A DNA stretch of 64,000 nt from a virus, in IMG/VR virus record IMGVR_UViG_3300025812_000003. One strand, written 5' to 3'. A program made the position numbers and the translations under genes. This document shows positions 4,137-26,818 of this stretch, one piece after another. The notes under the pieces are model-generated. The model was not told where the DNA came from. It was given only the letters and a program-made list of their open reading frames with translations, and made no database searches. The stretch's first letter is position 1. Every line of letters begins with the position of its first letter.

Positions 4137-4144
4137 AAAAAAAA

Positions 4145-4177
4145 TTCACGAAAATCATATCCCTTCGTGTATACTAT
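4145..4177 (+). promoter_or_regulatory. Possible sigma70-like promoter
   Basis: AT-rich intergenic region with TATACT at 4170-4175 and TTCACG at 4145-4150. The 19-bp spacing is long. Confidence 0.3.
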
Positions 4178-4230
4178 AGGTGTGGACGAACGCACCATGG
4201 GAAACGAACGGAAGCCGTGAGGGGGGGGCA

Positions 4231-7625: not shown

Positions 7626-7831
7626 ACATGCCGACGACCAAGGGTCCGATGTGGGTCATATCCCAGGATCGGGTGCAGCTCTGGAACGGGGACGTGAAGT
7701 TCTACGACGTGCCCAATCCCTGCAAGTTCGACCTGCCGAACAGGCCCCTGCTGCCCGAGGAGGCGGAAGGGGGGCCCGACGTTTTTTTGCCTGCCTGTAA
7801 GGGCTCCACGTCCCTGTCGTACACGTTGTAG
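7622..7831 (+). CDS. Hypothetical protein overlapping the 3' end of the giant ORF
   Basis: ATGA overlap with the previous gene; convergent overlap at 7702-7831. Confidence 0.35.
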   Translation: MNMPTTKGPMWVISQDRVQLWNGDVKFYDVPNPCKFDLPNRPLLPEEAEGGPDVFLPACKGSTSLSYTL

Positions 7832-10800
7832 TCCGTCCCGCCCTTCCGCCACGTCACGGTCAGCAGCCTTTCGGCACCGCCGTGGAACTCCCTGCTCTGC
7901 TCCGGCGTCAGCCTGCGGACGGCCTTGACGACGCCCCTCATGCCGTCAGCCTTCCGGACCACCTCGCTCCCCATGTCCCCCGGCCTGGCCAGCGACGGGT
8001 CCGCCAAATAAATGCGGGACGGGTCGAACACCGCCACCTGGTCGCCATCCAGGAGGCGTCGGATGCCCATCCCCTTGTACCACACGGCGTCGAACCTGGA
8101 CTTGAGGCTGTCGGTCAGCATCTTGGTCGCCGCCACCCGGTCGACCCTGGCGACCTCCGGGCTGTACCCGTTCTTGATCCACCACTTCATCATGGTGTTG
8201 GGGGAGCCGAAGTTGATGGTCTCCAGCCTCGGGACGTCGAGGTAGTAGGACCTGAGCCCCCTGGTGGTGCCGCCGTTGAACGCCTTGGCGATGGCCTTGC
8301 TGGTCGTGAAGTAGATGCCATACCCAAGGTGGTGGACCGGGGCTGGGAGCCCGAGGGCATAGTCCGTCTTCCCCTCGTACCCATGCTGGATTTCCGCCGA
8401 GTTGGCCTCCCCCTCGAAGACCTTGAACCCCTCCCTGTCGATGCCCGCGGCGGCCTGCGGGGTGGTCCCGTGCCATACCGGCCCGAACATGCCGCGGTCG
8501 ACGGCATCCTGCGGGGAGACGGTGCGGTCGGCGGGGAAGGCGAGCTTGGTTGCCGACCCCGTGATCCCCCCCATCGGGCTCCTGACCCATTCGGCGGCGC
8601 GCTCCACAGTGGCGTCCCTTATCGTCCCCCTGCCGTACAGCGTCACCTCTACGATCGCGCCGGCCGGCAGCCTGGCCAGCGCCAGCTCCACCGTCTTGCG
8701 GGCCTTGGCGTACGCCTCCATCTCCCACTTGTCGTTCTTCCCCCAGACCTTCCTGACCGCCACGTGGCCCTTCTCCAGGGCCGCCCCCATCGTCGCCTCC
8801 TGGTCCAGGTAGCCGAGCCCCTCGTCCTTCCAGACCGGCCCCACAAGGCCGAAGTCCACCGCCGAGTCCCCGTGCCCAGCCTCCGCCATCTGGCGGTCGT
8901 CGTACTCGTGCCAGCGCCCCCCGGCCTCCAGCCAGCCGCTCCTCTGGAACGGGGCAAGCTTGGGACGCCTTGCCGCGGCCGTCTTCTCGGGCCCCCACAC
9001 GCTTTCGTAGGCGTCCTTGAGCGGCACCGGGAGGCTGCGGCGGGAGGGGCTCTCCATCTCCCTCGGGTAGTTCCGCTCCATGAACCTGACGAGGTCGTCC
9101 CCGACGAGCGTGATGTCCGCCGCAACGTCCTCCTCGGAGAAGTAGTCCCCCGGCTCCAGGCCAAAGGGGAGGTCGTAGTCGACGTTCCTCTCCCCGCGCA
9201 GGCTCTGGACCTCCGGCCCGGCGTGCCTGTCCTCCCCGAGGTACCGCTGTATGGGCCCGTCCAGGTCCGCCACCACGATGGTGAGCTGCCCGTGCCTCCT
9301 GATGTCGTCCGGGGTGGGGTCGTGCCCCACCGCCCTGCGAACCTTCGACCTGATCCAGCGGGGCATCTCGTCGAAGTACGCCGCCCCCCCTCGGTCCTTG
9401 ATTTCCTGTATGGCATCCTCGCTATCCGTCGCCCCCTGCAGGCACTCCTCCACCCACTTGCCCATCTGGGCCCGTACACCCTGTTCGACGATGGAGGCGT
9501 CCTCGTCGGCGGTCCCGGCATGGAACAGGACCATCTGGCTGCCGGGGTCCACGGACCTGATGATGCGCTCCGCCTCCTGCCAGGTGCCGGAGGCTAGCTT
9601 GAGGAAGGGCCCGCCATGCTGTGTCGCCGTTTTCCCTTCTTCCTCGTCGAGGGCCTCAAGGCATTCCCTCGATGCCAACAGGATGTCGTCCCCGTCCGGG
9701 TAGTTGTCGGGGATGATCCAGCCGGGCATGCTGGAGTTCCGCATCGCGTCGACGATGTCCTCGGAACCGTATGCCTCCATGTTGACGCCAATCATCTCGC
9801 AGAACTTTTCCATTTCCTCCTTGCCGTCGATGCGGGGGAGTCTGATGGGACAGATGACCTTGTACCGGAGGACCTTGCCGCTTTCCTCCCCGCCGTGCCA
9901 GTCCTGGAAGTGCTCGGCGACGGACTCCGACGTGCTGAACCAAGCGGGCATCTCGATGCCGGACGGGTCGAACCTCTGCGAGGTGCCATGGTAGAGGACG
10001 GTGCCCCTGGGGAGGACCTGAGTCTTGCGCCAGCGCCGCCACCATTCGCCCGCCGCCGCCTTGCGCAGGGCGGACCCGTCGAACACGTAGACCGACTCGG
10101 GCTGGCCCCTCCCCTCGTCCAGCCACACGGCCTTGCATCCCCTTGCCTTGGCGTCCTGCACGGCGACGTCTATGGCGTCGGGGTCCCCGGCATACGGCGG
10201 CGCGGCGGGGTGGAATATGCCGTCCTTCCTCATCCTCGCCCGCCTGAGCTCCTCCGTCCTGCCGGTCTGCGTGAACTGGGCCGCCCACGCCTCGTCCGGG
10301 GACCAGTACCTCCCGCCCTTCTTGGACCCCCCACCCTCCCCCCTGAAAAGCAGGATGGTGCCGTCGTCCGCCGCCTTGCCGGGCTGGTGGGCCTGCTCCA
10401 CCACGAATTCCCCCCCGTACCTCTCCTTGAACTGGGCAAAGAAGTCGGGCGGTATTTCCCCGTAGTGGATCACCAGGACGGTGGGATTCTTCCAGTCGTC
10501 CCCCTTGTACTTCCTCCCGTCCCTCACCTCCACGACCGCCAGGATGCGGTTGGAGCCGGAGTAGCCTATGGGCTCCGTGATCCTGGCGGTATCGCGGTTG
10601 TATGCCTCGCCGGGGCGCAGCGGGCGGGCGAACTGGCGAAGCGCCCTGGTGATTTTCTCCACGGCGTCCCTGAAGGCCGCCTCGCCCTCCTCCGGCGAGG
10701 GGATGAGCGCCTGGACGTCCGGTATGCTGTCGTACTCCACGTAGGGGAACGCCTTGTGGTAGGCGTGGCGCAGGTCGTAGGGCTTGGACCTCTTGGCCTC

Positions 10801-13800
10801 GTGGGCGGCGATGCGCAGGAGGGCGGCCTCCCATGCCTCCGGCAACAGGGCGCGCAGGCGCTCCTCCATGCCGGGGTGCAGGCTGCCCTTGTCCTCGCCC
10901 GGCATCTTCCACTTGAATGCCAGGCCCCGGACGGCGTCCTCGACGTACTTCCGCCTCTCGGCGTCGGCGAACTCCTTCCACGACCCGTCCTTGCCCAGGA
11001 AGGTGGGGAGGGAATAGTAGGTGTTGTCGCTCAGGCGTCCCAGCGGATGGCTGAGGTAGAAGACCACGTCGTCCTCGTCCAGGTACATGGTGTTGGGCTG
11101 GAGCTCCATGCAGACGACGACCTCCCGCCCCTCCTCGTTGTGGTCCTTGGGGGCGCTGGCGGCGGTCATGAGGTTGCGGGCGACGTACGTCCCCCCGTAG
11201 CTCACCCGGCTGACGCTCACGGCGCTGGCGGCGGCATCCTCCCCCCAGTTCCTCTCCTTCGGGTCGGGGATCAGCCCCTGCTTGAGGATGCTGCGCAAAT
11301 TCTTGATGCTGCTGCCGTGGTACCAGACGGACTTGGGGGCGGCGAGCTTGGGCGGGATTGGCTTTTGGGTCGAGATTGCCTCGGCGACGGCCTTCGTATC
11401 GTAGAATTCCACCCCCGTTACCGCCGTCGCGGGAATCGTGCCCTCCAGGCTGCTCACGTCGGGGTTATGCCTGTCAAGGAATTGCACGCCCTTTGTCGGT
11501 CTGAACAGGACTAGTGCAACCCGCTTAGAGTTCTCCTGCCGGGCCTTCCGCAGGCCCCATCCGAGGGCCACCCTCCTGTCGGTGCTGATATAAATATGCC
11601 CCCCGCCTGCACCGCCCGTATAATCTGCCTTCAGGGCCGGAGGAACCAATCCATCTTTCTCGATATCCTTTGCGGCAGCGGGCGTCGTCCCGTGATACCA
11701 GATGGACTCGGGAGCGGCGGTCTTGGAGGCGGTCATCCTCCTATCGGACGGGTCGAACCCCTTGCTGTCGACTGCCTTGATCTGATCGGGGCTGAAAACA
11801 ACGTACTCGACGTTGGACTTCCCCCATTGGTCTTTGACCCGGTTAATGATGCCGTCGTATCCCGCGCCCCTGATCCTCTCCGGATGGCGGGAGATGATCT
11901 GCTGCAGGCTCTTGCTTCCATCGGCGGAGCGGAGGTCCTTATAGATTCCCTCGACGCCCCATCCCAGCCTTTCCAATTCCTCCCTGGGACCAAGAAGGCC
12001 GGAATCAAGGAGCGCCTGGGCATTCGCCTTCGTTTTGACCGTCAGGTCCAGCGGGTTCTCGATGCGCAGGTACACCTCGAACACATGCGGGTCGTAGCCG
12101 TCGATGATGCGCTTCTGCCCGAGCATCGGGTCGTATTCCACGCGATAGGTGAACCGCTGGGCAAAGTTCTGGTCCGGAGTGAAGAAGAACCCCACCTTTG
12201 CGTCGGCGGCCTCGGTGTTCCTCCCCTGCATTCCGGGGTTGAACGCCTCGAAGGGCACCCGCTTGCGGTGTATGCCGCCCATGACCTCCTCGGGGATGAC
12301 CCCGGGGTTCTGCTTGTCGAACCTCTCCATGGTATCGACCCATCCATCGAGGCGCTTGTCCACGTCCTCGTCGCCCGGATAGGCCTTGCCCATATGGTCG
12401 AAGGCTAGGCGCACCGCCTTCTTGAGGTCGTCCACCCACTCGGGGCGGTAGTTCTTCCCCCTGGGGCTACCGTGGTACATGACCATGGGGGTGCCGTCCG
12501 GGTTGACCACCTTGGACTTGCCGAACCAGGCCCTGAACTGGGGCGAGTCGGTTACGGCGACGGTGGTCTTGGATGCGGTCACGTGCTCGTACTTGGGCCT
12601 CTGCCACCTCGACGACCCCCTCAGCTTCCAGCCGGTGACGCGGACCGGGGCGTCGTGCCTGAGCGTCACCTCCTTCTCGTCGGAATGGCGGAGGTTCGCC
12701 CAGACGGTGCTGGCCCAGTCGACGTCCTTGAGGGCCACCTCCCCCCGGAAGACGTAGGTCTTCAGGCCCCTGCTGTACTCCGTCCAGTCCTCCTTCTCCC
12801 ATCCCCCCTCCTCGGCGAGGACGGAGTCGGCGTCGTAGGGGACGGCATGGCCTTCGTCCCACGTCCAGTAGATGCCGAACCCCCGCGTGTAGGGATAGCG
12901 GTCCGGCATCTTAACCGCACGGTAGACGACGAGGGGATCGGGAAGCCCGTTGCAGAACTCCCTGAACTCCTGGTACCTGCCGAGGTAGGCATCGCCGTAC
13001 CAGCGCTCGTACTCCTCGGCAGCGGGAAGCTGGGAGGGCATCCCGACCCCCGCCATCAGGGAGTTGTACGACTCCTTCCCAGCGGCGGCCTTCCCGGTCG
13101 GCAGCCCCTGGTACGAGTCCACTGGGACGTACGCCAATATGGCCTTGTCCCCCCTGATCTTGCCTGCCGCCACGCGGTGGTTGCCGTCCCGTATTCTCCC
13201 GTCGCCATCCATCACTATGGGCGGAATGGGGGTTTCCATCCTTGCATACTTCTCCGCAAGGGATGGATCGTAGTCGTCCCCCGCTTCGAGCTTTTGCAGG
13301 GACACCTCCTTGAGGACGTAGTCCCCCCCTGCATCCAGGCCGACCAACTGCTCGGCGTAGGTCCTGTCCTTCCACTCCGGGTGCTGGGACATGACGTAGT
13401 CGACGACCGCCTGACCGCCGATCCTGTCCCCGGCCCGGGCGGCGACCCTGGTGCTCCCGCCCAGGTTTTCCAGCCATTCTATGGCAACCTCGGGGCCGTC
13501 GAACTCCCGGTACATCTTGAGGTAGCCCCCCCATTCCAGGGTTATGGGGACGCCTGCGGGAGGGGGATGATCCCTCAGCAAGGAGATGACGTCCTGCTTC
13601 TGGCCGAGGTTCAGGACTTCCATGTAGATTTTCTCCCGGGCGGAGCACCCGCACCTGGAGAGCCAGTCTGTGGTCACCCTTATCGCCCCCTCCGCCGCCC
13701 ACGCTTCGAGGCCGAGGCTCTTGGCCAGCAGCGGATGGGTGTCCAGCTCCTTGGTGAAGGGATGCAGGACGCCGCCGACCACGAGGCCTCCAGCCTTCCA

Positions 13801-16800: not shown

Positions 16801-19800
16801 CTCAAGGGGGATGTCCCTGAGGACGTATCGGCTGGCGCTTGATTCGACCAGCTTCAAGAGGTAGTCCAGCCCTCCCGCCTTGCCCTCTACCCCTCCTCTA
16901 TGCAACTTTGCGATGTAGGAGGTTATCCATCCGGCATCGGCCTCCGGTGGATAGAAGGAATCGCCCGCCTGCCTGGGCATGGTACTTCTCTGCGGCGTGA
17001 CGGTCGCGAACTTGTCGTCTTTTGCTTTGCACAGGATAGACGAGGTCTTCATAGGCTTTAAGACGATGACATCTTCTTCCTTTACCTCGATGGGATAGCC
17101 GTATTCCCAGCTATACGCCTCCGCTTGGTATAGACCATCGACTCTAAACCTTCTTGAGGGGATGCGAATGACAACGGGCTTTCCTCCTTTGGATTTAATG
17201 AAGTTCCTGGCGTACCAAGCGGCAACTGGTTCGGTTGAAAACCACGTTCCGGCCCGCAGGCCCACCTTGAGGATATCCCCCGTGTATGTGCTGGTGGTGC
17301 CGTGGTACAGGAATTCCGGCAATGCCTTGGCCGCTTGCTTGACCAGGGTGCTTCTCTGCGGCGTGACGGTCGCGAACTTCCCGCCGTCCGCCTCGCCCAG
17401 GACGGTGCTGATGCCGTCGTTCATGTATTCGTCGTATATCCTGAAGTGGCTGTCCCACCATTCGTCCTCGGGCTCGTCGGCGGCGTTCCTGCACCCGATG
17501 GTATGTGTTTCCACCCACCATCCGTCGACGACCTTGGAAGTGCCGCACGCCTCCGCGGATGCGCCCGCCAGCATCCTCCCGGCCTCCTCCAGGACGTGCG
17601 GAGGAGGAGGCGAGCTGGCGACCTTGCGGTGCTGGCGGACCTCGATGGCGGGGTCGTAGCCGTCATGGTCGACGAGGCTCCGCCTGACCTCCTCGGCGTC
17701 CGCCGCCACGGCGGGAAGGCTGTCTATCTTCTGCCCGTCGAGGTAGACGTCCCACCAGGGAGCGGCGTCCTCCCGCAGGATCATGGCGTGCTCCATCATC
17801 CTCTTGGCCGCAACCTCCTCGGGATCGGTCATGTACCTCCGGAAGGACTCCTCGTCCACGAGCTTCGCCAAGTCGGTCTTGACGACCTGCCTCTTTCTGA
17901 CCGCGTGGAGGATGTGGGCCCCCTCCTCCAGGATGGTCCTGATCATGTCCTCGGGGCCGAGCCTGGGATTGACGAACATCGCGGGCTCCCCGCGGAACCT
18001 GCCCGCCCCCCCGAAGAACTTCACGTTGGGGTTCTCCACGACCTTGCCGCCCTGTATCGGGCGATCCAGGGCCACGACGGGGACGTCCAGCACCCCCTCG
18101 TACAGCGCCCTGACCTTCCTGCCGACCAGGAGGTCCCCGAGGGTGCCCGCGATCTCCCCGAGGGGGCTCACGGCTATCCTGCGGACGAACCCGTAGTCAA
18201 ACTTGGATGGGAAGGCCGTCCGGCCGGGCTGCCCCATGTACCTGTCCCCCGCTTCCTTCGGAACGGAGGCGGCCTTGCTCGTTTCCACCTCGGCATGGTC
18301 GGGGCCCGCCGCTGGCCCCACCGGGGCTTCCTGCACCTCGACCTTCTTCTTGTACAGGGAACCCCTGTCGGTGCCCTCCGCCTTGCAGATCGGGCAATGG
18401 CGGCTGAGGCCGCCAGCGTCCTTGAGTTTTCGCTCGAACCCCCTGGTGACCCCCTCCCATATCCTCGCCACGGTGAAGCTGATGCCGCGCTCCTTGGCGA
18501 CCTCCATCAGCCTCACCCAGGACGTGCCCTCGTAGTGCCTCTTTATCCTCGCCATCGGGTCGATGGCGAACCCGCAATAGTGCCTGGTGGCCGCCTGCGA
18601 CCCGTGGGGGATGCCGCCGCCAAGGAAGTGGAGCAGGTAGACCGCCCCTAGCTTGCCTTCGTCGGCCGGTGCCCTGGCATACTTGTCCTTCTTCATCTCG
18701 CGGAGCAGCTTGTCAACGTATACCTGGGTGTCCACGGGCTTGCCCACGTTCGTGACCTGGGACGGGTCGAACACGACGAACTCCATGTCCGTAAGGGCGG
18801 CTATGTCGGTATAGATAAGCCCGTCATGGCCCGCCCTCAGCGCCATGCGCGCCACGGAGCGATCCACCCTGGCCCATTCCTCCTGCGTCTGGGGCGGGCC
18901 CGTGTCGTCGGAGAGGGCCTTGTCAAGGTCCTCCATACCGGGAAGGCCGGTCAGCTTTTTGGTGGCGTCCCATTGGTCCTCCGCCACCAGCGGGTTCGCC
19001 ATGCGCAGCGTCGCCACGACGTAGTGCGTCCCGTATTCGGGAGCGGGATCCTCCGAGAAGAACGCCCCTCCCTCCCCCCACTTTATCCTTCCATCGGCCC
19101 CCGTGACGTGGTATCCCTTGAAGATGGCGGGCCTTCCGGTGCGGAACCGTCCCTTGTCGTACTTGAAGGCCGTCATCGTCCTCCATGCCTTCGGGGCCGT
19201 CCTCCATCCATAGCCTCCCTTCTTCCATGCCACGATGAGGGGATGGACGCCCTCCTTCAGGCGAATCTCCCGTTCCTCCTCCCCCGTGGAAGGGGCCATG
19301 TTGGCCTCGAACGTGCCCTCCCAGTCGATGTCGTCCCTGCCCACCTGGGCCTTCAGCAGGATTTTTTCCGTCCCCAGGCCGAAGCTTCCCCAATGGGCCT
19401 CGGCGGCGGCCTCGTCCCACGACCAGAAGATTCCGATCTTCTTGGGATTGACGGCCTTCCTTCCCCCGACCAGGGACAGCATCCGGTAGACGGTCAGGGG
19501 GAACGTCCATCTCCCGTGCTGGCGCAGCAGCTCGTCGTAGCGGCCCTTGAGGTGCTCCTCGGCGTTCCCGTAGATCCACTTCGCCTGCTCCTCCTCGGGA
19601 AGGGCGTCGAACTCCCTCGTCTCGTCGACGTCGGACGGCTCCCACTGGTCCCACGAGTCCACGTCCCGCACCATCCCCTCGATGCCGCCGTGCTGGCGCT
19701 TCCATTCCTCCCATGACGGCATCCCCTCCATGATCCCCGCCGTCTTCGGGTAGAGTGCGCCCTCGTCGATGTAGTATCCCCCGTCGTCCCCTTCCCTTTC

Positions 19801-22800
19801 CTCCGGGTCGGTGAGCGGCCTGTCGGCCTCCCCAACGTACCCCTCCGGCGTCATGGCCCACATCGCGTCCTCGGTCAGCCTCGTCCACTGTCTGCCGTCC
19901 CAGACTTGCAGCCGGGCGGCGGGGATGCTCCTCTCGGTGAAGAAGGCGTCGGCGACGGCGTCGCCTGTCCCCACTTCGTCGGGCTGGACCTTCAGGCGCT
20001 TTGCCTCCTTGGTGCGGAGGATCACGGGGACGAGGCCATCCTCGACCGGGCTGTCGGAATTGTGGTATGCCCACTGGACCGCCCGCTGGTACCAGAAGCC
20101 CACCCCGCGCCATTCGGTCAAGAAGCTCCTTCCCTTCGTGTGCCAGCCATAGAGCCCCCCGATGCTCGCCGGGTGGCCGGTTTCAAGCCCGAGCCAGATG
20201 ATGTCCTCCAGCCGGTTGAAGTAGGTCACGTGGTAGAGCCAGTCGCCGGTGGCCGCCGTCTTTGCCTGTTCCTCCAGCTCCTCCAGGGAAAGCCCCGTCC
20301 TGTTCCCGTCGATGCACTCGGGCTGGGTCCCGTACCCGCCGATGGCCTCCCCCTCGCCAAGGTCCGGGAACTCGTTCTCGCGGTGCGGCGTCTGCTTGTG
20401 GGAGGCCGTGACCATCTTGTTCATCGTCCTGAAGTCGTTGTCCTTCGGCTCCTCGATGCCAGTCAGCCGGATCCTGGCCCCGGGCACCAGGCGTATCTCG
20501 TCCTCGTCGGGGTCCTTGGCGTTGGCATGCAGGGTGCCCTCCCAGTCCACGTCGTCCTCGCTCAGCACCTCGGCCCGCAGGGTGACGATCCCCCCTTCCT
20601 CCCCCCCGACGCTCGGCGTCCATATCGACGACGGGCCCCAGTAGGACTGGGCGCTGTCTACGTTGTCGCTCCAGTATATCCCCACGTTTTCCAGGTTGAC
20701 TTTCTTCCCGGCAGGCACCTCCAGTTGCCGGTAGACCGTCAGGGGGAACTTTATGGAGTTGAGGTACTCCACTTGGTCCGGAAGGGCCCATTCCCGGATT
20801 TTTAAGTCAGCGCCTGCACTCAAGCCAAGGCCCTCCAGGTATTTCCTGGGCGAGCGGGGCATCTCGACCCTCCGCCTGGCGGACGCCGTGACGGGCGCTT
20901 TCGGGGCGAGGAGCGGGCTCCCCGGCTTGGGCTCCTTGCCTGCGGTCGGCGCGGGCACGAGCCACCTGCGGTACTGCTGGAAGTTGGCGACCGCCCAGTC
21001 CACCGCGTCCTGGAGGCGTTCCGCCTCGAACACGGGCCTCCCGTTGCCCCCCTCCGGCAGGCACCATTCCCCACCTCTCTCGTGGATGGGAACGATGTCC
21101 CTTGCGTCCCTGCCCCAGAAGATGACTTGGTCCTCCTCGTCCCCGTAATGGTGAATCCTGATTCCAGATGCCCTGAAAAGCACGGCATGCTTGCCGTATT
21201 TCCTTTCGATGCGCCCCGCCTCGCCTGCCGGGACGGCGAAGTTGTACCCTCCGGTCTTGGCCTTGTCGGTGAAGTAGGTGGTGAGCCCGAGGCGGGCCAG
21301 GTCCCACATCCCCCTCGTGAACCCGTGGAGGGATATTTCGCCGGGCTCGTCGGTCTTGTGGACGAGCCACTGGTTCTTGACGATGCCCTCGTATTCCATG
21401 TACATGAAGGACGGGGCGTCCATGGGATCATCGTCCACGGCCCTCGTTCCCTCGTCGCTCCTCAGGAACTGCTCGCACATCGCGGGCGGCAGGCCGGAGA
21501 ACATGTCGTTGTCGATGAGCTCGTCCAGGTCCTTGGGGGCTTCCCAGCCCTCGGGCAGCTCCTGCCCGGATAGCCAGTCGAAGAAGCGATGCGGGAACTG
21601 GCGGGCCAGCTCCTCGCCCTTTTCGGCGTCCGTCATCGTCAGGTAGCCTTTCAGCCACGCGAGGTCCTGGCGCACGAACGCCTTCTTTAGGCTCCCCACC
21701 TTTGCTCCGTCCGGATTGCACTGCGGGCAGGCGCAGCACGGGCACTTAGGGTCGCCGCAGAAGGCGTGGTACTTCTCGTGTCCCGGCTGTCCTGGCCGGA
21801 CGACGTTCACGTCCGGCTTCCCGAACTGGTCGTGCGTCCCGTCGATAACGGTTCCGTCCTTGAGGACGTTCCATACGTGGTCGAGATGCCCGAAGTTCGG
21901 CCTCCGCCCGTGTGGGGCGGGAATGCCATCAGGAAGGTAGAAACCGCCTTCGATGCCCCAGCCGAATTTCTTGGACGCCGCCTCCGACACGAAGCCGCAT
22001 TGCCCTTCGCTGGCCGCCGCGGAGGCGCTCTCGTCCATGCGTATGCTCCCCCGAATCCTGCGGAGGGCGTCCAGCACTTCGGGCGTCGGCATCGTTTCCT
22101 TCCCGCTGGCCGTAATGCTAAGGTCATCCGGATCGAATGTCCCGGTGTTCCTGTCGGCGGACTTGACTTGGCTGGGGCTGAAGATAACATAAACGTCGCT
22201 TTGAGTCGCCCCGTCATAGACGTCCCTGGCGATGATGCCGTCCCGCCCGTTCTTCTTTGCCCAGTCGAACTCCGCCTTGCGGGGGACTATGCCGTCGAGC
22301 ACGAGCGGGTTTTCGATCTTGAGGTACACCGCCATGACATGGGTGTCGGTGCGAAGCTTCCTGTTGTACATCCGGGCTTGGCTCTTGGCCTCTTCCTCGG
22401 CCTTCTCGATGGTGGGGTAGGGGCCGACCGAGAAGATCGGCTCCTCCCGGAGGGTAAAGACCGCCGCATAGAACTCTCCGTCCTTGCCGTATCCCTGAAT
22501 GCTTGCCTCGTCCGCCTTCTTCTTGGGGCCCGAGTCAGAGAAGAACCTGGCATTGTCCTTGCTGGACGTGAACCAGATTCCCTTTTCGACACCCGCCGCA
22601 CCGGCCCACGAAGTGCCTGCCATGCCCAGGTCGAACGACGACACCCACGGGGACTTGCTGCCATGGTAGACGACCAGCGGCCTTCCCGCTGCATCCACCA
22701 CCCTGGAGTTTCCGAACCACGCGTCCAAGGCTGGCGTGCGGATCGGCCTTGCCGCCGCCTTTTTGATTCCCTCCGTACGGTAGGGCGGCACCCTGGAGAT

Positions 22801-25230
22801 TCCCTTCTTCACCCCCTGCCACCGTGCGGTCGGGGAGATGCGCTTCTTGAGGTAGGGCAGGAGGTCCTTGTACCGGTAGCGCTCCACGGCGCTTATGTGC
22901 TGGGGGCCGACCGGCCCGCGCTTGAGGTACACGTCGATTTCGTCGTCGCCCAATCCTACCCTCGGCTGGAGGTCCATCCCCGCTCCCCTGGGGTCGTCTA
23001 TGCGGACGAGGAACACGTCCGGCATCCTCCCGGGCTCCTTCTCGGGATCGATGCCCTCCTTGAGGCCCTTGCCCAGGGCATCGCCGAGGGCATAGTATAT
23101 GGCCAGGCCCTTGTCCGGGGTGGCGTACGCCGTCCCCCAGAACTTGCCGGGCACGAGGCCCTTCTCCTTTATGGAGTAGGCGGCATCTTCCGACGTCCCG
23201 TGCCAGGCCGTGCCCACATTGCCCGCCCTTCCCGCCGCTTGTTTGTTCTCGGGCGCGAACACGGGCTTGAAGACGTTGAGCTCGATGCTTATCGGGACGG
23301 TGCCCTGCCCGACGAACCTCTTGTAGTTGCTCGGGCTGAACAGGACTATGGAGTCGAACCCCCGTTTCTCCGCCTCCTGCTTCATCCTGGCGTCCAGGAA
23401 GAACCTTGCGGCCACGCCAGCATCGTCCGGGATTCCCCCGAGGCCGAGATCCCGGAGGATGCTCTCCTCGTCCCCCACGAGGGGATTGGCCACGTGGACG
23501 TGGAGCGGGGCGTCTAACGGCCTGCCCCAGAACTCCGCCTCCCTGAAGGTGGAGGCGAGGAACTGCCCCCTCTTGCTATATGCCTTGGGGTCCTCGGGCG
23601 GGACATGCCACCAGTCCTTGGAGTTGATCCTGCGCAGGAGGGCGTCCATGGCTCCCCCGCCCGACGAGCTGGCCGTGACGGAGGTCAGCCATCCTTCCCG
23701 CACGTCGGGCTGCCCCCACATCTCGTCGAACTTGGCCTCCAGCTCCGGCCCCCTTGCGATTGCGTACCCGCCGTAGGGGGAGATGCCCGCCTTGCACAGG
23801 AACCTGCGGTCGGTCGTTTCGACGAGCTTGTACTGGCCCGGGTCCTGCAGCTTGGGGGTCGCCAGCAGCTCTTTCTGCTTCTGGGAGAGGTGGGCGGAAT
23901 ATTGCCACAGCCGGTTGTTGTTCCCGTAGGGATACCTGTGGAGGAGGACGTAGAACGGCTTCTCGTCGTATTCCACCACCATCGCTTGGTCGGATTTCTC
24001 CGTTACGAAGTCCTTGCCGTACTTGGCGTTCCAGCGGTCGGCGACTTCCTTCCAGGACCTCCCGTGCCCGCCCATGACGCCACTCAGCATCTTCACGGTC
24101 TGGGGGGTCATGCCCTCGTTGAGCTTTCCCTGCCAGTAGACGAGCATCTCCTCGTGGTGGGCAAGCTCATGGGCGAGGATGCGCCGAAGGGTTTCATCGT
24201 CCCCGCAAATAGATTTCTGGAGGGTGATGACGGTGTTGGGCTTTCCAATCGTCCACCTGCAATCCCCCAGCCAGCGGGACTTTATGTTGTTCACGACCTT
24301 GAGCTCGGGAACGGGGAGGTCCCCCCGGACGTCGGGCATCAGGGACGCGAGGACGTTCCTGACCTGCCCGTAGTCCATGGCCTTGGCTACTATGCCTTTT
24401 TGATTGAGGGACTTGCGCAGCTTGCCGCCCTCGCCCGTGGTGCCGCTGCTGGTTATCTTTTCGCCCGGGAACTCCTGCCCAACCTTCTCGTACATGGCGG
24501 TGGCCACGCCCTTGCGCCGCCAGGCGGGATCGACGAAGACGTACTGCACCCACACCTCGTCCCTGTATTCGGAGAAGTGCAGGTAACCCACCTTGACGCC
24601 CCGCCTCGTCTCCGTATGGCCGCCCTTGCCATCAGGGACGGACTTCCACGCCCCGGCGTCCTCCCCGGCCCATGCCGTGACCCTGCCGAAAAGCTCGTCC
24701 CTGTGGGCGTCCACGATTTCGAGCTGGCAGGTGAATGCGGGCGTCCCAGTCGCCTTTTTCGGGCGGGCGGGTTCCTGGGGGACGAGCCACTTGACCATCA
24801 GGGGGAGGGTGGGCTTCTCGCCCTCCTCGGCCCATTCTCCGCCTGCCATGCCCACGTGCTCGAAGCCGTGGCGTTCGTACCATTTGGCCAGGTTCATGCC
24901 CTTGAGCGCCCTAACGTTCTTCTCGTATATGCCGACCAGGAGGACGACGGCGTCGCATCCCATGCGCCTTGCCTGCCGGGTAAACCTTTCCAGCGTCTTG
25001 TTTCCCCAGCCCTCGCCGCGAGGGGAGGCGAACATGATGTCGATGACGCCTACCTTCTTGCCGGACAGCATCCGCACAAAGCCCTCGGGGTCGGAAAGGT
25101 GCTCGTTGTCGGCCCATGCCTCCAGGTCCGGGTCGTTTTCCAGGATTCCGCCGATTAGGTCGTAATGAGGCGTGTTATAACTGATTTCCTGCCATGCTGT
25201 CCTGAGGAGCGGGTTTTGTGCGATGCGCAT
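7702..25230 (-). CDS. Giant polyvalent polyprotein (5842 aa), about 34 modules, mostly ADP-ribosyltransferase-like
   Basis: Uninterrupted 17.5-kb ORF. Approximate modules: GNAT 24760-25194 and 24380-24750; SprT-like HELAH 23680-24378; GIY-YIG-like 18277-18669; TILEEGAH zincin-like 17626-18264; ParB-like 16579-16965 and 13093-13437; Cys-His-Asp-like 21692-22104; about 19 ART-like modules (YHG[TS], YHVT or VYR..YW[ST]..ExE). Confidence 0.9.
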   Translation of the reverse strand: MRIAQNPLLRTAWQEISYNTPHYDLIGGILENDPDLEAWADNEHLSDPEGFVRMLSGKKVGVIDIMFASPRGEGWGNKTLERFTRQARRMGCDAVVLLVGIYEKNVRALKGMNLAKWYERHGFEHVGMAGGEWAEEGEKPTLPLMVKWLVPQEPARPKKATGTPAFTCQLEIVDAHRDELFGRVTAWAGEDAGAWKSVPDGKGGHTETRRGVKVGYLHFSEYRDEVWVQYVFVDPAWRRKGVATAMYEKVGQEFPGEKITSSGTTGEGGKLRKSLNQKGIVAKAMDYGQVRNVLASLMPDVRGDLPVPELKVVNNIKSRWLGDCRWTIGKPNTVITLQKSICGDDETLRRILAHELAHHEEMLVYWQGKLNEGMTPQTVKMLSGVMGGHGRSWKEVADRWNAKYGKDFVTEKSDQAMVVEYDEKPFYVLLHRYPYGNNNRLWQYSAHLSQKQKELLATPKLQDPGQYKLVETTDRRFLCKAGISPYGGYAIARGPELEAKFDEMWGQPDVREGWLTSVTASSSGGGAMDALLRRINSKDWWHVPPEDPKAYSKRGQFLASTFREAEFWGRPLDAPLHVHVANPLVGDEESILRDLGLGGIPDDAGVAARFFLDARMKQEAEKRGFDSIVLFSPSNYKRFVGQGTVPISIELNVFKPVFAPENKQAAGRAGNVGTAWHGTSEDAAYSIKEKGLVPGKFWGTAYATPDKGLAIYYALGDALGKGLKEGIDPEKEPGRMPDVFLVRIDDPRGAGMDLQPRVGLGDDEIDVYLKRGPVGPQHISAVERYRYKDLLPYLKKRISPTARWQGVKKGISRVPPYRTEGIKKAAARPIRTPALDAWFGNSRVVDAAGRPLVVYHGSKSPWVSSFDLGMAGTSWAGAAGVEKGIWFTSSKDNARFFSDSGPKKKADEASIQGYGKDGEFYAAVFTLREEPIFSVGPYPTIEKAEEEAKSQARMYNRKLRTDTHVMAVYLKIENPLVLDGIVPRKAEFDWAKKNGRDGIIARDVYDGATQSDVYVIFSPSQVKSADRNTGTFDPDDLSITASGKETMPTPEVLDALRRIRGSIRMDESASAAASEGQCGFVSEAASKKFGWGIEGGFYLPDGIPAPHGRRPNFGHLDHVWNVLKDGTVIDGTHDQFGKPDVNVVRPGQPGHEKYHAFCGDPKCPCCACPQCNPDGAKVGSLKKAFVRQDLAWLKGYLTMTDAEKGEELARQFPHRFFDWLSGQELPEGWEAPKDLDELIDNDMFSGLPPAMCEQFLRSDEGTRAVDDDPMDAPSFMYMEYEGIVKNQWLVHKTDEPGEISLHGFTRGMWDLARLGLTTYFTDKAKTGGYNFAVPAGEAGRIERKYGKHAVLFRASGIRIHHYGDEEDQVIFWGRDARDIVPIHERGGEWCLPEGGNGRPVFEAERLQDAVDWAVANFQQYRRWLVPAPTAGKEPKPGSPLLAPKAPVTASARRRVEMPRSPRKYLEGLGLSAGADLKIREWALPDQVEYLNSIKFPLTVYRQLEVPAGKKVNLENVGIYWSDNVDSAQSYWGPSSIWTPSVGGEEGGIVTLRAEVLSEDDVDWEGTLHANAKDPDEDEIRLVPGARIRLTGIEEPKDNDFRTMNKMVTASHKQTPHRENEFPDLGEGEAIGGYGTQPECIDGNRTGLSLEELEEQAKTAATGDWLYHVTYFNRLEDIIWLGLETGHPASIGGLYGWHTKGRSFLTEWRGVGFWYQRAVQWAYHNSDSPVEDGLVPVILRTKEAKRLKVQPDEVGTGDAVADAFFTERSIPAARLQVWDGRQWTRLTEDAMWAMTPEGYVGEADRPLTDPEEREGDDGGYYIDEGALYPKTAGIMEGMPSWEEWKRQHGGIEGMVRDVDSWDQWEPSDVDETREFDALPEEEQAKWIYGNAEEHLKGRYDELLRQHGRWTFPLTVYRMLSLVGGRKAVNPKKIGIFWSWDEAAAEAHWGSFGLGTEKILLKAQVGRDDIDWEGTFEANMAPSTGEEEREIRLKEGVHPLIVAWKKGGYGWRTAPKAWRTMTAFKYDKGRFRTGRPAIFKGYHVTGADGRIKWGEGGAFFSEDPAPEYGTHYVVATLRMANPLVAEDQWDATKKLTGLPGMEDLDKALSDDTGPPQTQEEWARVDRSVARMALRAGHDGLIYTDIAALTDMEFVVFDPSQVTNVGKPVDTQVYVDKLLREMKKDKYARAPADEGKLGAVYLLHFLGGGIPHGSQAATRHYCGFAIDPMARIKRHYEGTSWVRLMEVAKERGISFTVARIWEGVTRGFERKLKDAGGLSRHCPICKAEGTDRGSLYKKKVEVQEAPVGPAAGPDHAEVETSKAASVPKEAGDRYMGQPGRTAFPSKFDYGFVRRIAVSPLGEIAGTLGDLLVGRKVRALYEGVLDVPVVALDRPIQGGKVVENPNVKFFGGAGRFRGEPAMFVNPRLGPEDMIRTILEEGAHILHAVRKRQVVKTDLAKLVDEESFRRYMTDPEEVAAKRMMEHAMILREDAAPWWDVYLDGQKIDSLPAVAADAEEVRRSLVDHDGYDPAIEVRQHRKVASSPPPPHVLEEAGRMLAGASAEACGTSKVVDGWWVETHTIGCRNAADEPEDEWWDSHFRIYDEYMNDGISTVLGEADGGKFATVTPQRSTLVKQAAKALPEFLYHGTTSTYTGDILKVGLRAGTWFSTEPVAAWYARNFIKSKGGKPVVIRIPSRRFRVDGLYQAEAYSWEYGYPIEVKEEDVIVLKPMKTSSILCKAKDDKFATVTPQRSTMPRQAGDSFYPPEADAGWITSYIAKLHRGGVEGKAGGLDYLLKLVESSASRYVLRDIPLEDLYIPDCSTTSTGSKDLEAIREYQDMDAEFPPIVVIGGRIVDGMHRATAAWDRGDETIRAYVGVPSTKVTQQRDRTASSVAKVGGLQEISNGWIKLDGSFVYSTAHNEDAKRWGYENLEEAVDEGLVRVIGTSRHLSFEATDAAGPRHRILEALDSINHDAEVAIELIQDRSLGHSVYKRFDSPWDAGKWLSRWKRAFGKKEAIGDKGWSYDDPLTDRSADFFELVENPHSERKKEAAAKTAAWEGAVDFSSDPRWHDVFYGMPTPRRIKELGQFLRSDANRFVTLYHGTDAGHPVMEEGLLPTSAGRAKSIQSSPGFVYLSVFPGHAKTFGELAYGPTTPIAVYAVTVTARRLLPDPDQLRNKRMYGNAEVGDTLAESLAIGHGARVRGKVDPMQLSVVRGPKKASGPTGFPSVAEVLEWGHVEPHELVDWGKVEDAVSRIPVSQRNQTRKEDEDQTALRILTEQWEAARERLGALRFPLAAYRALSFDSPDWGKEVNKGGFGVYWSLSEDSSYIGEDLVGKYVFVFRGVIESPDDVDWVPTAYLNTVIPEEEEVRLKEGARVRVDGWKARGGGRWTRLSGGMAVTASTPKEAAGDLMSLFEGVRVPSQLPDVDVMREYLSPEALEEYLETRKFFLKLPNPFVVYRALKLDSESVLPRRQDFGVCWTWDFDKARPYGPAAQRQGVRHIFQGEVALEDVDWGYTAIVTSSEEKEIRLRRGARVRLTRWFNPRFEGDGWKAPPYQYVTASASKAAFTDAAMYADADLRDEVAREILDEYKKVVGDGIDYAMPGKRPTKKHLFQKNYRQRWRVVPAARLMKIWKDYAKAGIVRDQAGMDEIADIVTENILKIEVNTILCRHTSWSPEEFAAEVLDHEVPEGYFDLLPSFFDDEEGSWRLSDFATGPLTTLALDLYDAKTAEAKLQVVDKILNIVHQRSDLSGWLVQGGRVTLRKLFEYIGEAKGGENVVWVRDPKGKVVFNPDFDPSKTAADPSIPAGDEEFWKAGGLVVGGVLHPFTKELDTHPLLAKSLGLEAWAAEGAIRVTTDWLSRCGCSAREKIYMEVLNLGQKQDVISLLRDHPPPAGVPITLEWGGYLKMYREFDGPEVAIEWLENLGGSTRVAARAGDRIGGQAVVDYVMSQHPEWKDRTYAEQLVGLDAGGDYVLKEVSLQKLEAGDDYDPSLAEKYARMETPIPPIVMDGDGRIRDGNHRVAAGKIRGDKAILAYVPVDSYQGLPTGKAAAGKESYNSLMAGVGMPSQLPAAEEYERWYGDAYLGRYQEFREFCNGLPDPLVVYRAVKMPDRYPYTRGFGIYWTWDEGHAVPYDADSVLAEEGGWEKEDWTEYSRGLKTYVFRGEVALKDVDWASTVWANLRHSDEKEVTLRHDAPVRVTGWKLRGSSRWQRPKYEHVTASKTTVAVTDSPQFRAWFGKSKVVNPDGTPMVMYHGSPRGKNYRPEWVDDLKKAVRLAFDHMGKAYPGDEDVDKRLDGWVDTMERFDKQNPGVIPEEVMGGIHRKRVPFEAFNPGMQGRNTEAADAKVGFFFTPDQNFAQRFTYRVEYDPMLGQKRIIDGYDPHVFEVYLRIENPLDLTVKTKANAQALLDSGLLGPREELERLGWGVEGIYKDLRSADGSKSLQQIISRHPERIRGAGYDGIINRVKDQWGKSNVEYVVFSPDQIKAVDSKGFDPSDRRMTASKTAAPESIWYHGTTPAAAKDIEKDGLVPPALKADYTGGAGGGHIYISTDRRVALGWGLRKARQENSKRVALVLFRPTKGVQFLDRHNPDVSSLEGTIPATAVTGVEFYDTKAVAEAISTQKPIPPKLAAPKSVWYHGSSIKNLRSILKQGLIPDPKERNWGEDAAASAVSVSRVSYGGTYVARNLMTAASAPKDHNEEGREVVVCMELQPNTMYLDEDDVVFYLSHPLGRLSDNTYYSLPTFLGKDGSWKEFADAERRKYVEDAVRGLAFKWKMPGEDKGSLHPGMEERLRALLPEAWEAALLRIAAHEAKRSKPYDLRHAYHKAFPYVEYDSIPDVQALIPSPEEGEAAFRDAVEKITRALRQFARPLRPGEAYNRDTARITEPIGYSGSNRILAVVEVRDGRKYKGDDWKNPTVLVIHYGEIPPDFFAQFKERYGGEFVVEQAHQPGKAADDGTILLFRGEGGGSKKGGRYWSPDEAWAAQFTQTGRTEELRRARMRKDGIFHPAAPPYAGDPDAIDVAVQDAKARGCKAVWLDEGRGQPESVYVFDGSALRKAAAGEWWRRWRKTQVLPRGTVLYHGTSQRFDPSGIEMPAWFSTSESVAEHFQDWHGGEESGKVLRYKVICPIRLPRIDGKEEMEKFCEMIGVNMEAYGSEDIVDAMRNSSMPGWIIPDNYPDGDDILLASRECLEALDEEEGKTATQHGGPFLKLASGTWQEAERIIRSVDPGSQMVLFHAGTADEDASIVEQGVRAQMGKWVEECLQGATDSEDAIQEIKDRGGAAYFDEMPRWIRSKVRRAVGHDPTPDDIRRHGQLTIVVADLDGPIQRYLGEDRHAGPEVQSLRGERNVDYDLPFGLEPGDYFSEEDVAADITLVGDDLVRFMERNYPREMESPSRRSLPVPLKDAYESVWGPEKTAAARRPKLAPFQRSGWLEAGGRWHEYDDRQMAEAGHGDSAVDFGLVGPVWKDEGLGYLDQEATMGAALEKGHVAVRKVWGKNDKWEMEAYAKARKTVELALARLPAGAIVEVTLYGRGTIRDATVERAAEWVRSPMGGITGSATKLAFPADRTVSPQDAVDRGMFGPVWHGTTPQAAAGIDREGFKVFEGEANSAEIQHGYEGKTDYALGLPAPVHHLGYGIYFTTSKAIAKAFNGGTTRGLRSYYLDVPRLETINFGSPNTMMKWWIKNGYSPEVARVDRVAATKMLTDSLKSRFDAVWYKGMGIRRLLDGDQVAVFDPSRIYLADPSLARPGDMGSEVVRKADGMRGVVKAVRRLTPEQSREFHGGAERLLTVTWRKGGTDYNVYDRDVEPLQAGKKTSGPPSASSGSRGLFGRSNLQGLGTS
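11315..11724. repeat. Imperfect 35-nt direct repeat (11315-11349 / 11690-11724) flanking one ART module
   Basis: 29/35 identity by hand alignment; offset 375 nt (125 codons). The copies encode KLAAPKSVWYHG and KTAAPESIWYHG. Confidence 0.75.
16985..17379. repeat. Exact 29-nt direct repeat (16985-17013 / 17351-17379) flanking one ART module
   Basis: CTTCTCTGCGGCGTGACGGTCGCGAACTT occurs twice, offset 366 nt (122 codons), each encoding KFATVTPQRS on the minus strand. Confidence 0.95.
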
Positions 25231-25936: not shown

Positions 25937-26818
25937 CTAGTCCATGAATCTAAGGGTCTTGATGTACGAGGAGCCGATGATTTCGCAGGCCGAGGACGCC
26001 TTGACTTCCTGGCCAGCGCCTTCTTCCTTGCCTTCCTCTTCCCCCTCCTTTTCAGGAGGACGGAAGAATGCGCACCAATCGTCGTAACCTACCTTGACGG
26101 CCCCATCGGGGAGCTTCTTCTCGGGCTTGATGTCCGGGTCCTTCATCACGGCGGGGTGGGAGCACGAATCGACCTCGTTCCCGTCCTCGTCCTTCGAGTG
26201 GGGGGTCCGAAAATGGCAGTTCATGCACGTCGCCGGGCCATGCCCGGCGAACCCGGTGAGCCTCGTCCCGATCCTGACATTTTCCGCCCCATCGGCCAAA
26301 GCCATGGCTCCCTCCTTGGACGCCCCCTTTTCTTCCTTTTCTTCGTCGTCGACGGTGCCCGGGCCTTCCTTGACGGCTTCCTGGTGCTTCTCGATGGCGG
26401 GCCTCAGGTCGTCCAGTTCGACCTCGTGCACGTCCCCCAGCCTCTTGTCCCCCCATCCCTTGGGATAGTGCGCCAGGTAGAGGGCCTGGGCCTCCTCCAG
26501 GCTGTTGCACCCGAGGACCGCCTTGTACTCGTCCAGCGCCTCCCCGTCCTCCTTGAGCTGCTCCACTATGTAGGCCTTTTCCGAGTCCCTGAAGGGCCCT
26601 ATGTATACGTCCAGGGGCTCCTTGTCGCCCTTGGCGGAGGTGTCGTCCACGAAACCGTAATCACAACGCATTTCTCTTCTCCAAGGTTTCCCGTCTTTGT
26701 CCTTGCCCTCCCGGATCGATCCCCTGGGCCACTCGACGATAATGTCCAGGCCATGCAGTTTGACGTTGTGGTGCTGCGGGAGCTTCCCCGTCACCCGAAA
26801 GCTAGATTCCAAATCCAT
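25937..26818 (-). CDS. Inorganic-pyrophosphatase-like domain protein (polyvalent-protein type) with acidic and Cys-containing C-terminus
   Basis: Motifs GLDI.VE.PRGS.R.G....W...M..DYG, DKEPLDVYIGP, EQL....DE.K.VLG..S.E.A...YL..Y. Confidence 0.8.
   Translation of the reverse strand: MDLESSFRVTGKLPQHHNVKLHGLDIIVEWPRGSIREGKDKDGKPWRREMRCDYGFVDDTSAKGDKEPLDVYIGPFRDSEKAYIVEQLKEDGEALDEYKAVLGCNSLEEAQALYLAHYPKGWGDKRLGDVHEVELDDLRPAIEKHQEAVKEGPGTVDDEEKEEKGASKEGAMALADGAENVRIGTRLTGFAGHGPATCMNCHFRTPHSKDEDGNEVDSCSHPAVMKDPDIKPEKKLPDGAVKVGYDDWCAFFRPPEKEGEEEGKEEGAGQEVKASSACEIIGSSYIKTLRFMD

Follow-up and report, generated by a model that had tools for sequence, protein, structure and literature searches.

A recurrent alanine-containing tetrapeptide at the module junctions of a giant phage polyvalent protein suggests processing by a capsid maturation protease

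The viral DNA analysed here, a window of 64,000 nucleotides (nt) from IMG/VR virus record IMGVR_UViG_3300025812_000003, contains at 7702-25230 on the minus strand the gene for a polyvalent protein, P0001, written as a single uninterrupted open reading frame (ORF) of 5842 codons. The GC content at third codon positions (GC3) is 0.87, typical of coding sequence in 64%-GC DNA. An identical protein is found on a 180-kb ENA contig, and a 173-kb JGI contig carries a called gene of the same 5842-amino acid (aa) length in the same place; since independent metagenome contigs agree in this way, P0001 is not an accident of assembly. The intact chain has a predicted mass of ~640 kDa. The window further encodes a portal protein, a family-A DNA polymerase, a primase, a clamp loader, a UvsX-like recombinase, a CCA-adding enzyme, a ClpX/HslU-like AAA+ protein and tail-spike-like genes, and appears to derive from a jumbo-phage-like genome belonging to a clade of peat and soil phages. 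Within GenBank, similarity was detectable to a single phage, Tunturiibacter phage Tunturi_5 (309 kb, acidobacterial host), which shares ~69% nucleotide identity with the window over the polymerase and portal genes.

The P0001 chain and its junction motif

Pfam names only a small part of P0001, and most of the modules lack a Pfam family. The named parts are a GNAT acetyltransferase core (aa 210-253, 24472-24603; Acetyltransf_7, 6e-10), a first ART-PolyVal domain of the ADP-ribosyltransferase (ART) type (aa 846-1040, 22111-22695; PF18760, 2e-23), a second ART-PolyVal domain (aa ~4327-4490, 1e-18) together with a weak third, and a PARP-like core (aa ~4633-4691, 2e-5); all features of the chain lie on the minus strand. 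A SprT-like zincin region containing HELAH (HExxH; aa 318-403, 24022-24279) was matched weakly (E 3.8e-4, 20.7 bits, below the 25.6-bit cut-off), and apart from this sub-threshold region Pfam found no confident protease embedded in P0001. The protein is thus a large multi-domain phage protein with hallmark conflict domains (ART-PolyVal, GNAT and PARP-like, with InPase in the adjacent gene).

Internal repeats were identified by a chunked self-BLAST of P0001, as a whole-protein self-BLAST returned the identity match only. The repeat set comprises five copies of an unnamed ~130-aa family, two ParB-like copies (aa 2802-2894 and aa 3930-4041) and two adjacent ART-like modules beginning K[TL]AAP[EK]S[IV]WYHG. 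The ParB label rests on these internal repeats and on the annotation of relatives; the second copy (13108-13443) has a free-standing 134-aa homologue and was modelled by AlphaFold with a predicted local distance difference test score (pLDDT) of 73-95. A helical domain at aa 3607-3771 (13918-14412; pLDDT 73-98) represents a widespread family, matched by >120 of the 150 best representatives. This all-helical domain has no Pfam family, and its matches in a library of 1.8 billion proteins include many free-standing proteins of ~190 aa (180-220 aa). One ART-like module (16965-17402) is bracketed by a direct repeat of its linker, KFATVTPQRST..QA: two 72-nt copies with 79% identity and a long exact core lie at 16965-17036 and 17331-17402, 366 nt apart and in frame (aa 2608-2637 and 2730-2759 in the protein). 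The module appears to be a cassette that was recently inserted or duplicated at a linker.

Taken as a whole, the chain consists of ~26-30 modules, including several ART-like families, GNAT, ParB-like modules and many unnamed folds, connected by short disordered linkers with the motif [K/V/I/M/R]-[T/x]-A-[A/S]. The loose pattern [KRVMI]-x-A-[AS] occurs 40 times in P0001, compared with 20.2 +/- 4.3 times in 2000 composition-preserving shuffles of the protein (shuffle maximum 34), and the T-A-[AS] core that characterizes the strict sites occurs 16 times where 3.5 are expected (z 6.8). An unbiased ranking of tetrapeptides placed VTAS (6 vs 0.09 expected) and KTAA (5 vs 0.14), 35-65-fold above expectation, in the top four, the remaining two being FDPS and the ART catalytic word YHGT. 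The residue preceding T-A-[AS] is K, V, M, I or R in 15 of the 16 sites; eight have the shape V/I/M-T-A-S, and K-T-A-A is the other main form. Strict sites number 2.7 per 1000 aa in P0001 and 0.48 in the other likely genes of the window, i.e. 5.7-fold fewer. The recurrence of the motif is thereby confirmed, far beyond chance. Its codons vary synonymously (TCC/AGC for Ser, ACG/ACC/ACA for Thr, GCC/GCG/GCA for Ala), and selection therefore acts at the level of the peptide. A DNA-level recombination signal was considered as a general explanation and rejected, as the codons vary and no repeat family falls on the motifs except for the one linker duplication. The constraint is thus on the peptide, while cassettes can also be gained at the linkers.

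The sites coincide with module junctions. In phmmer alignments of P0001 to 178 other proteins and to the ORFs of a related 237-kb IMG/VR genome (G001, with a portal 72% identical to that of the window), 36.6% of the log-weighted homology edges fell within +/-12 aa of the sites listed in the first-pass annotation, compared with 11.1% after circular shifts (P 0.0008); the corresponding figures were 20.4% vs 6.7% for the strict sites (P 0.006) and 44.9% vs 16.9% for all loose sites (P 0.001). Site flanks, with the motif itself excluded, are also less hydrophobic than the background (0.234 vs 0.306, P 0.0006).

P0001 opens with MRIAQNPLLRTA (aa 1-12, 25195-25230), a candidate capsid-targeting or propeptide leader with the degenerate end R-T-A|W. 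The strict VTAS518 (23668-23679) follows the end of G001 homology by ~4 aa, and the loose KQAA663 (23233-23244) is succeeded by a Gly and then by an ART-like WHGTS. The first ART-PolyVal domain starts just after the loose KAAA824 (22750-22761), with 44 homology starts in aa 811-840, and ends at the strict ITAS1039 (22105-22116), with 46 homology ends in aa 1031-1060. The strict VTAS1447 (20881-20892) is located in a Pro/Lys-rich linker beyond aa 1420, where G001 homology stops, and the strict VTAS1607 (20401-20412) at the end of repeat-family-A copy 1. A high-scoring segment pair (HSP) with G001 starts exactly at the strict KTAA1657 (20251-20262), and another ends at KTAG1829 (19735-19746), which has Gly at position 4. 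Homology coverage stops at aa 2321, at the loose KAAS2319 (18265-18276); the loose KVAS2536 (17614-17625) precedes SPPPP, with a flank hydrophobicity of 0.20; the loose KQAA2631 (17329-17340) lies within the repeated linker KFATVTPQRST..; and the strict RTAS2885 (16567-16578) comes after ParB-like copy 1. The tandem KEAA-A-KTAA (aa 3045-3053, 16072-16098) marks the start of a module whose 73%-identical counterpart in G001 also begins at its own KTAA.

The region aa 3201-4400 was searched exhaustively with HMMER, giving 1536 relatives that define homology blocks at 3219-3399, 3438-3555, 3607-3764, 3806-3926, 3930-4041, 4057-4213 and 4216 onward. All seven junctions carry a site: the loose KKAS3214 (15580-15591), ahead of the block from aa 3219; the pair VTAS3396/KEAA3402 (15016-15045), where coverage is low (10 at aa 3391, 2-3 over aa 3401-3431); the strict VTAS3556 (14554-14565), with a coverage of 3-4 between blocks; the strict KTAA3796 (13834-13845), where coverage is ~0; the loose RVAA3928 (13438-13449), between blocks 3806-3926 and 3930-4041; the loose KAAA4047 (13081-13092), at a drop in coverage; and the strict VTAS4217 (12571-12582), with ART-PolyVal homology from aa 4216. 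In an AlphaFold model of aa 3540-4260, two domains were confidently predicted (3607-3771 and 3939-4036, pLDDT 73-98), and VTAS3556, KTAA3796, RVAA3928 and KAAA4047 are outside both, in segments with pLDDT <50; KTAA3796 stands at the start of its linker, in a block with a mean pLDDT of 50 followed by values of 28-42. The loose matches VPAA3622 and RVAA4019 are found inside homology blocks and inside high-confidence helices. The model is uninformative for aa 3800-3927 and 4051-4260, where MAFFT placed short fragments of two module families on the dominant family and the rows were dropped.

Towards the C-terminus, the tandem MTAS-KTAA (aa 4499-4506, 11713-11736) separates the end of the second ART-PolyVal domain from the start of the WYHGT ART module, and doublets of this kind (ITAS-KTAA, KTAS-KTAA) are also found in relatives. 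An HSP starts at the loose KLAA4628 (11338-11349), for which the G001 equivalent is KAAA, and G001 homology runs from aa 5054 at the loose KAAA5057 (10051-10062). The loose KLAS5211 (9589-9600) is a weaker boundary, with a G001 HSP that continues to aa 5221, and the strict KTAA5416 (8974-8985) opens a region without homologues (aa 5397-5530 uncovered).

Of the 40 loose matches, ~28 are of the junction type and ~12 are interior, the latter number being close to the chance expectation, and cutting at the ~28 sites would yield ~26 products of 50-520 aa, some with more than one domain. The 24 motif positions listed in the first-pass annotation were all correct, its coordinates being the low end of each 12-nt motif, and the comparison of boundaries with interiors that it proposed has homology edges clustering at sites (P 0.0008-0.006). 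Its statement that almost every boundary carries the motif holds as regards the association with junctions, but must be qualified by the interior matches, and its figure of ~34 modules is plausible as a count of domains but not as the number of motif-delimited units. Among the domain classes it named, GNAT and ART were recovered by Pfam together with a PARP-like core, whereas the metallopeptidase match is weak and below threshold and ParB lacks Pfam support.

Relatives with and without the motif

Nine giant relatives of P0001 (P0003-7, 9, 10, 13 and 14; 3.6-5.5 thousand aa) are likewise enriched in x-T-A-[AS], with z = 2.4 in P0009 and between 5 and 9 in the remaining eight. When the 126 sites of these proteins and P0001 are pooled, K (56 sites), V (21 sites), I, M, L or R precedes T-A in 107, and the flanks hold no other conserved position. 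The sites again follow domain ends: in P0005, KTAS434 comes just after the Pfam envelope of a 2'-5' RNA ligase (282-421), and in P0010, ITAS1704 comes after a full-length ART-PolyVal domain (1561-1698) and KTAS3547 after cREC_REC (3404-3511). P0008, P0011, P0012 and P0015-32 show no excess of x-T-A-[AS] (z <2) and provide a built-in control against an explanation based on composition or on the class of protein as a whole.

Local identities between P0001 and its relatives range from 27 to 73%, and the proteins are not collinear. In G001, homologous modules are split over six adjacent ORFs of 549-3027 aa in shuffled order, and the strict motif occurs 2.1 times per 1000 aa in these ORFs compared with 0.40 elsewhere in that genome. 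Homology between G001 and P0001 starts and stops at sites in both, and G001 gene ends map to P0001 linkers; the last P0001 module (5559-5828, after ..ATKLAF) is the first module of the G001 gene starting MTNVSKTAF. Five of the six G001 ORFs have a leader of 5-27 aa followed by the motif (MEELIY-KTAG, MRLKQEERVLSQLLN-KSAA, MDLL..RPR-KTAS, MTNVS-KTAF and MRSLNPLLQPTAG), and the sixth has its first motif, KFAS, at residue 54. P0003 and P0005 similarly begin MNPLLQ(M)KTAA, i.e. MNPLLQKTAA or MNPLLQMKTAA, and P0001 itself begins MRIAQNPLLRTAW. Gene boundary and linker site thus seem interchangeable between relatives, as is expected if the modules act as separate proteins. T-A is retained even where position 4 is G, F or W, as would be in keeping with a cut after Ala.

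Capsid protease, head proteins and neighbouring genes

Tunturi_5 gp331 is annotated as a head maturation protease, and homologues with 61-63% identity occur in four of five related IMG/VR genomes and at 80 metagenome loci, mostly from peat or soil. The genome G002 (IMGVR_UViG_3300041809_000571, 317 kb, rated 99% complete) has the same 3027-aa polyvalent ORF as G001; no match to the head protease was found in it, which could be due to masking, a missed first look or true absence. The clade protease gave no sequence match in Pfam or the PDB but matches the PHROG head maturation protease at 1e-14. In an AlphaFold model built from 63 sequences, residues 48-255 form a confident core and the tails are disordered; compared with ~48,000 PDB representatives by VIA-align, the model was closest to T4 gp21 (Z 8.7 over 126 aa, 3.2 A), followed by the proteases of varicella-zoster virus (Z 8.1), human cytomegalovirus (HCMV, Z 6.1) and Kaposi's sarcoma-associated herpesvirus (KSHV, Z 4.8), with unrelated chains at <=4.6. 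The top four structural matches are thus all capsid maturation proteases. A Foldseek search of the PDB with the same model returned nothing at E <= 0.001, the best hit again being gp21 (E 0.011). On this model, the capsid maturation protease of the clade belongs to the T4 gp21/herpes assemblin fold. Invariant His55 and His109, together with Ser167, are candidates for its catalytic residues, and invariant Cys177, Cys180, Cys191 and His193 (e.g. in L045:10001-10903) look like a zinc-ribbon insertion, with a weak Zn_Ribbon_1 hint.

The tails of this protease carry the motif found in P0001. Among 66 distinct sequences, the N-terminal tail contains K(51)-T-A(50)-S(45) and K(56)-I/T-A(51)-A(48), and the C-terminal tail K(53)/M(11)-x-A(64)-S(60). 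All three sites are conserved inside otherwise variable, gappy tails, which is the pattern expected of self-processing. The protein encoded next to the protease, which is scaffold-like in its position and acidic low-complexity sequence, has nine K-x-A-[AS] where 2.1 are expected (P<0.001), and Tunturi_5 gp332 has six where 1.3 are expected. The major head protein (Tunturi_5 gp334 and homologues) shows a doubled motif at its N-terminus, ..LL-K-[TS]-A-[GA]-GRQ-K-L-A-A-S.., within ..LLKTAGGRQKLAAS.., and in gp334 the predicted cuts fall in LLKSAAGRQKLAAS.

In the portal protein, encoded in the window at 51524-54010 on the minus strand (PHROG portal, 1.6e-20), K-T-A-A stands at residue 88 (53738-53749), where a variable N-terminus of ~90 residues meets the conserved core. 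Equivalents of the form K-[TIV]-[AG]-[AGS] (K-T-A-A-G in one group) are kept in 10 of 10 aligned portals, representing eight distinct sequences. The same 10 relatives share a second conserved element, [KR]-x-[FY]-A-S-A-G, at aa ~40-50 (53840-53890 in the window), possibly another cleavage site. One short motif, with sites that are predicted, is therefore common to the protease tails, the scaffold-like protein, the N-terminus of the major head protein and the portal of this clade, and the protease motifs of T4, phiKZ and SPN3US recur across head and internal proteins in a similar manner.

Other genes near P0001 were also inspected. The upstream gene at 25937-26818 on the minus strand encodes an InPase domain (Pfam, 1e-32) and a Cys-rich module; its product has acidic linkers containing KGAS and VKAS and resembles a two-module mini-polyprotein in which InPase, an acidic linker with KGAS and the Cys-rich module follow one another and VKAS lies near the C-terminus. 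A second polyvalent-like gene (30564-33398, minus strand) starts with MDLRSEFLVQAA at 33398, a leader similar to the MDLESSFRVTG of the InPase protein; it contains one in-frame TAG (amber) codon after ..HCGNSP, and the frame resumes into a 744-aa ORF (30564-32798). The ClpX/HslU-like AAA+ protein (AAA_2 and ClpB_D2-small) is encoded on the plus strand at ~2771-3838 and is 355 aa as called on metagenome contigs, the start at 2105 in the window's ORF list probably being too early. As a speculation, such an unfoldase might be interested in C-termini ending ..TA or ..TAA, as made by cleavage. To the left of the window (L002:2828-6503) are two collagen-repeat proteins of 477 and 737 aa, probably fibres; the larger is 563 aa in another sample, pointing to a variable repeat length.

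Proposed processing and alternative explanations

The combined observations lead us to favour, as probably correct, a model in which the motif is the cleavage site of the clade's prohead protease of gp21/assemblin fold and the ORF encodes a head-packaged polyprotein that is matured into ~26-30 effectors. The precursor would enter the prohead, possibly through its N-terminal NPLL-type leader, and the clade protease would then cut the linkers during head maturation. Cleavage would take place after Ala, with K/V at P3, T at P2, A at P1 and A/S/G at P1', as in the V/L-x-A|S of assemblin, and the separate enzymes would be ejected with the DNA. The prohead protease is indicated as the cutter because its own tails and the head-assembly proteins also bear the motif. 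A broader proposition, to which we give an even chance, is that this clade of peat and soil jumbo phages may carry its injected anti-host weapons in the form of single polyproteins 3.6-5.8 thousand residues long, cut at K/V-T-A|A/S by an assemblin-like capsid protease, with gene boundaries and cleavage sites interconverting freely.

Several results weigh against this model. Cleavage, the scissile bond, the cutting enzyme, packaging and injection are all steps that we infer. The match of the protease fold is moderate (Z 8-9; Foldseek E 0.01), and no homologue of the clade protease was found in the window (tblastn) or in ~5 kb of left and ~8.5 kb of right flank, the latter containing replication genes only. 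Two protease variants with 65% GC come from the same kind of samples but were not joinable to the contig of the window, as exact-protein look-ups gave other contigs, and no overlap at the nucleotide level was seen between the head-module loci and either the window or its flanks. A boundary statistic based on coverage ratios did not reach significance (P 0.07-0.45), since the common motif is itself included in alignments to other polyvalent proteins; the alignment-edge test was used in its place. Neither Tunturi_5 gp321 nor the polyvalent ORFs of G005, a more distant genome (43% GC) with the same protease, are enriched in the strict motif, so that possession of this protease does not always go with the array design; in G005, the portal and three further large ORFs nevertheless retain an excess of K-x-A-[AS]. 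The proposal of the first-pass annotation, a head-packaged precursor cut after Ala by a prohead protease, accordingly gains comparative backing from the protease fold and tails, the scaffold-like, head and portal proteins and the G001 genes, and a prohead protease of the kind it suggested looking for occurs in Tunturi_5 and in four of the five related genomes, although no such gene was recovered for the phage of the window itself.

Part of the recurrence could also have been inherited with the domains, given that four of the six VTAS come after paralogous copies of one repeated family, and one linker was duplicated at the DNA level, as seen in the 72-nt repeat around the ART-like module. Both observations suit an alternative in which the motif is a conserved, uncleaved spacer or cap between domains that was carried along with the modules as these were duplicated and reshuffled as cassettes, leaving one giant multi-enzyme chain. 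There are precedents for such a chain in the polyvalent proteins N4 virion RNA polymerase (vRNAP), ArdC and TraC1, which are described as being transferred uncut in passages of PMC5512222. Against this, the motif joins unrelated folds, uses varied synonymous codons and survives paralogue identities of ~30% while its flanks vary. It is also present in proteins that are not polyvalent, namely the protease, scaffold-like, major head and portal proteins, and coincides with gene starts and ends in G001, and we therefore regard an uncleaved linker as unlikely. A by-product of composition is far less credible again. P0001 is rich in Ala (9.2% of residues), with high-GC DNA and linkers rich in Ala, Ser, Thr and Lys, so that ~20 loose matches are expected by chance and the ~12 interior ones look like chance. 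This explanation is effectively refuted by the shuffles, in which the maximum of 34 falls short of the 40 observed, by the ranking of VTAS and KTAA and the restricted residue before T-A, by the lower density in the other window genes, and by the lack of enrichment in the compared polyvalent proteins outside the motif-sharing group.

The linkers might instead be cleaved, before packaging or after injection, by an enzyme other than the prohead protease. Candidates are the SprT-like zincin within the chain, the product of the Prok-JAB gene immediately upstream and a host protease of the signal-peptidase kind. The T/A/S residues at -3 and -1 resemble the small-residue rule of signal peptidases, which speaks for such an enzyme, while known JAB peptidases cut after Gly-Gly, which speaks against one of the candidates. 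The Prok-JAB metallopeptidase-like gene is on the same strand as P0001 (25340-25867, minus strand; PF14464, 1.6e-9), but the HExxH region at aa 318-403 is a match below the Pfam threshold and the only one of its kind in the chain. Processing of polyvalent proteins by zincins has been put forward as a hypothesis in passages of PMC5512222. The motif is also found in the tails of the prohead protease itself and in the head-assembly proteins of the clade, which favours the prohead protease over these enzymes, and we rate their involvement as somewhat more doubtful than an uncleaved linker.

Cleavage by the clade's capsid protease would bring P0001 close to several known systems without reproducing any of them. 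T4 gp21 cuts after Glu (L/I-x-E), and the T4 internal proteins and Alt bear a capsid-targeting sequence and are cut by gp21. The resemblance to T4 lies in a putative cargo that comprises ADP-ribosyltransferase-like modules, in gp21 being the best structural match of the protease and in the short leaders of relatives and of five G001 ORFs, at whose end the motif stands (degenerate in P0001). The T4 cargo, however, is encoded by separate genes with one site each, and P0001 is a 5842-aa array with ~28 sites. The prohead protease gp245 of SPN3US cuts itself, at its own C-terminal propeptide, as well as the portal and ejection proteins at one short motif, AXE (PMC10052503). For phiKZ and SPN3US the motif is A/S/G-x-E. 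The systems of phiKZ gp175 and SPN3US gp245 also belong to jumbo phages in which one motif recurs in the protease, a long portal propeptide, the major capsid protein and the ejection proteins, with several cuts per protein (PMC10052503); unlike P0001, their substrates lose propeptides and are not split into many enzymes, and their proteases have no sequence similarity to that of the clade, judging by Pfam and PDB sequence searches. The T4 and phiKZ proteases, to which the first-pass annotation appealed, both cut after Glu at different motifs, and herpesvirus assemblin is the better precedent for Ala.

In pseudorabies virus, the assemblin sites are YLQA|T and VQA|S (PMC4498786). P0001 and this enzyme family (S21) have in common Ala before Ser/Thr and a form with a hydrophobic P3 that conforms to [V/L/I]-x-A-[S/T], and the fold of the clade protease is related. 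Assemblin, however, cuts only itself and the scaffold, at two sites, whereas in P0001 Lys is the commonest residue at the P3 equivalent, Thr is preferred at P2 and the scissile bond is a predicted one. Like the polyproteins of picornaviruses and potyviruses, P0001 would be a single product divided at a recurrent short junction motif into many proteins, but those viruses use their own embedded protease and obtain replication and structural proteins, while a separate capsid enzyme and accessory effectors are proposed here. P0001 would thus work like a polyprotein, but not one of the self-processing (embedded-protease) type.

The nearest relatives in architecture are the polyvalent proteins surveyed by Iyer, Burroughs, Anand, de Souza and Aravind in 2017 (PMC5512222), passages of which describe 2-15 domains and propose, by analogy with viral polyproteins, the release of domains by peptidases, with embedded zincins favoured and assemblin-like domains included. 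As in the class outlined there, P0001 is very large, has ART-PolyVal, GNAT, ParB-like and PARP-like modules with InPase next door, and differs from its relatives in module order. It departs from those descriptions in its ~26-30 units, in having one defined tetrapeptide at nearly every junction and in the tie to a capsid protease rather than an embedded peptidase; as far as a term search of that survey showed, it describes no junction motif. The processing of polyvalent proteins as a proposal, and prohead-protease motifs and targeting leaders in their classical form, are already known. What is new is that the junction motif is defined and resembles that of assemblin, and that the array is so large and regular, with gene boundary and site interconverting.

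Phage polyvalent proteins are regarded as the weapons that reach the cell first, and their processing has so far been a hypothesis without defined sites; a junction motif tied to a capsid protease makes that hypothesis testable. The motif delimits ~26-30 effector modules for functional study, and with it the mature products of a phage that has not been cultured can be predicted from nothing more than its sequence. If the proposed mechanism is true, the mature set of ejected proteins could be read directly from sequence, and modules would be swappable as cassettes at the linkers. The Ala|Ser specificity would then be shared by herpesviruses and a tailed phage whose maturation protease has the same fold, and a bacterial virus would be applying the polyprotein strategy on a scale otherwise seen only in eukaryotic RNA viruses.

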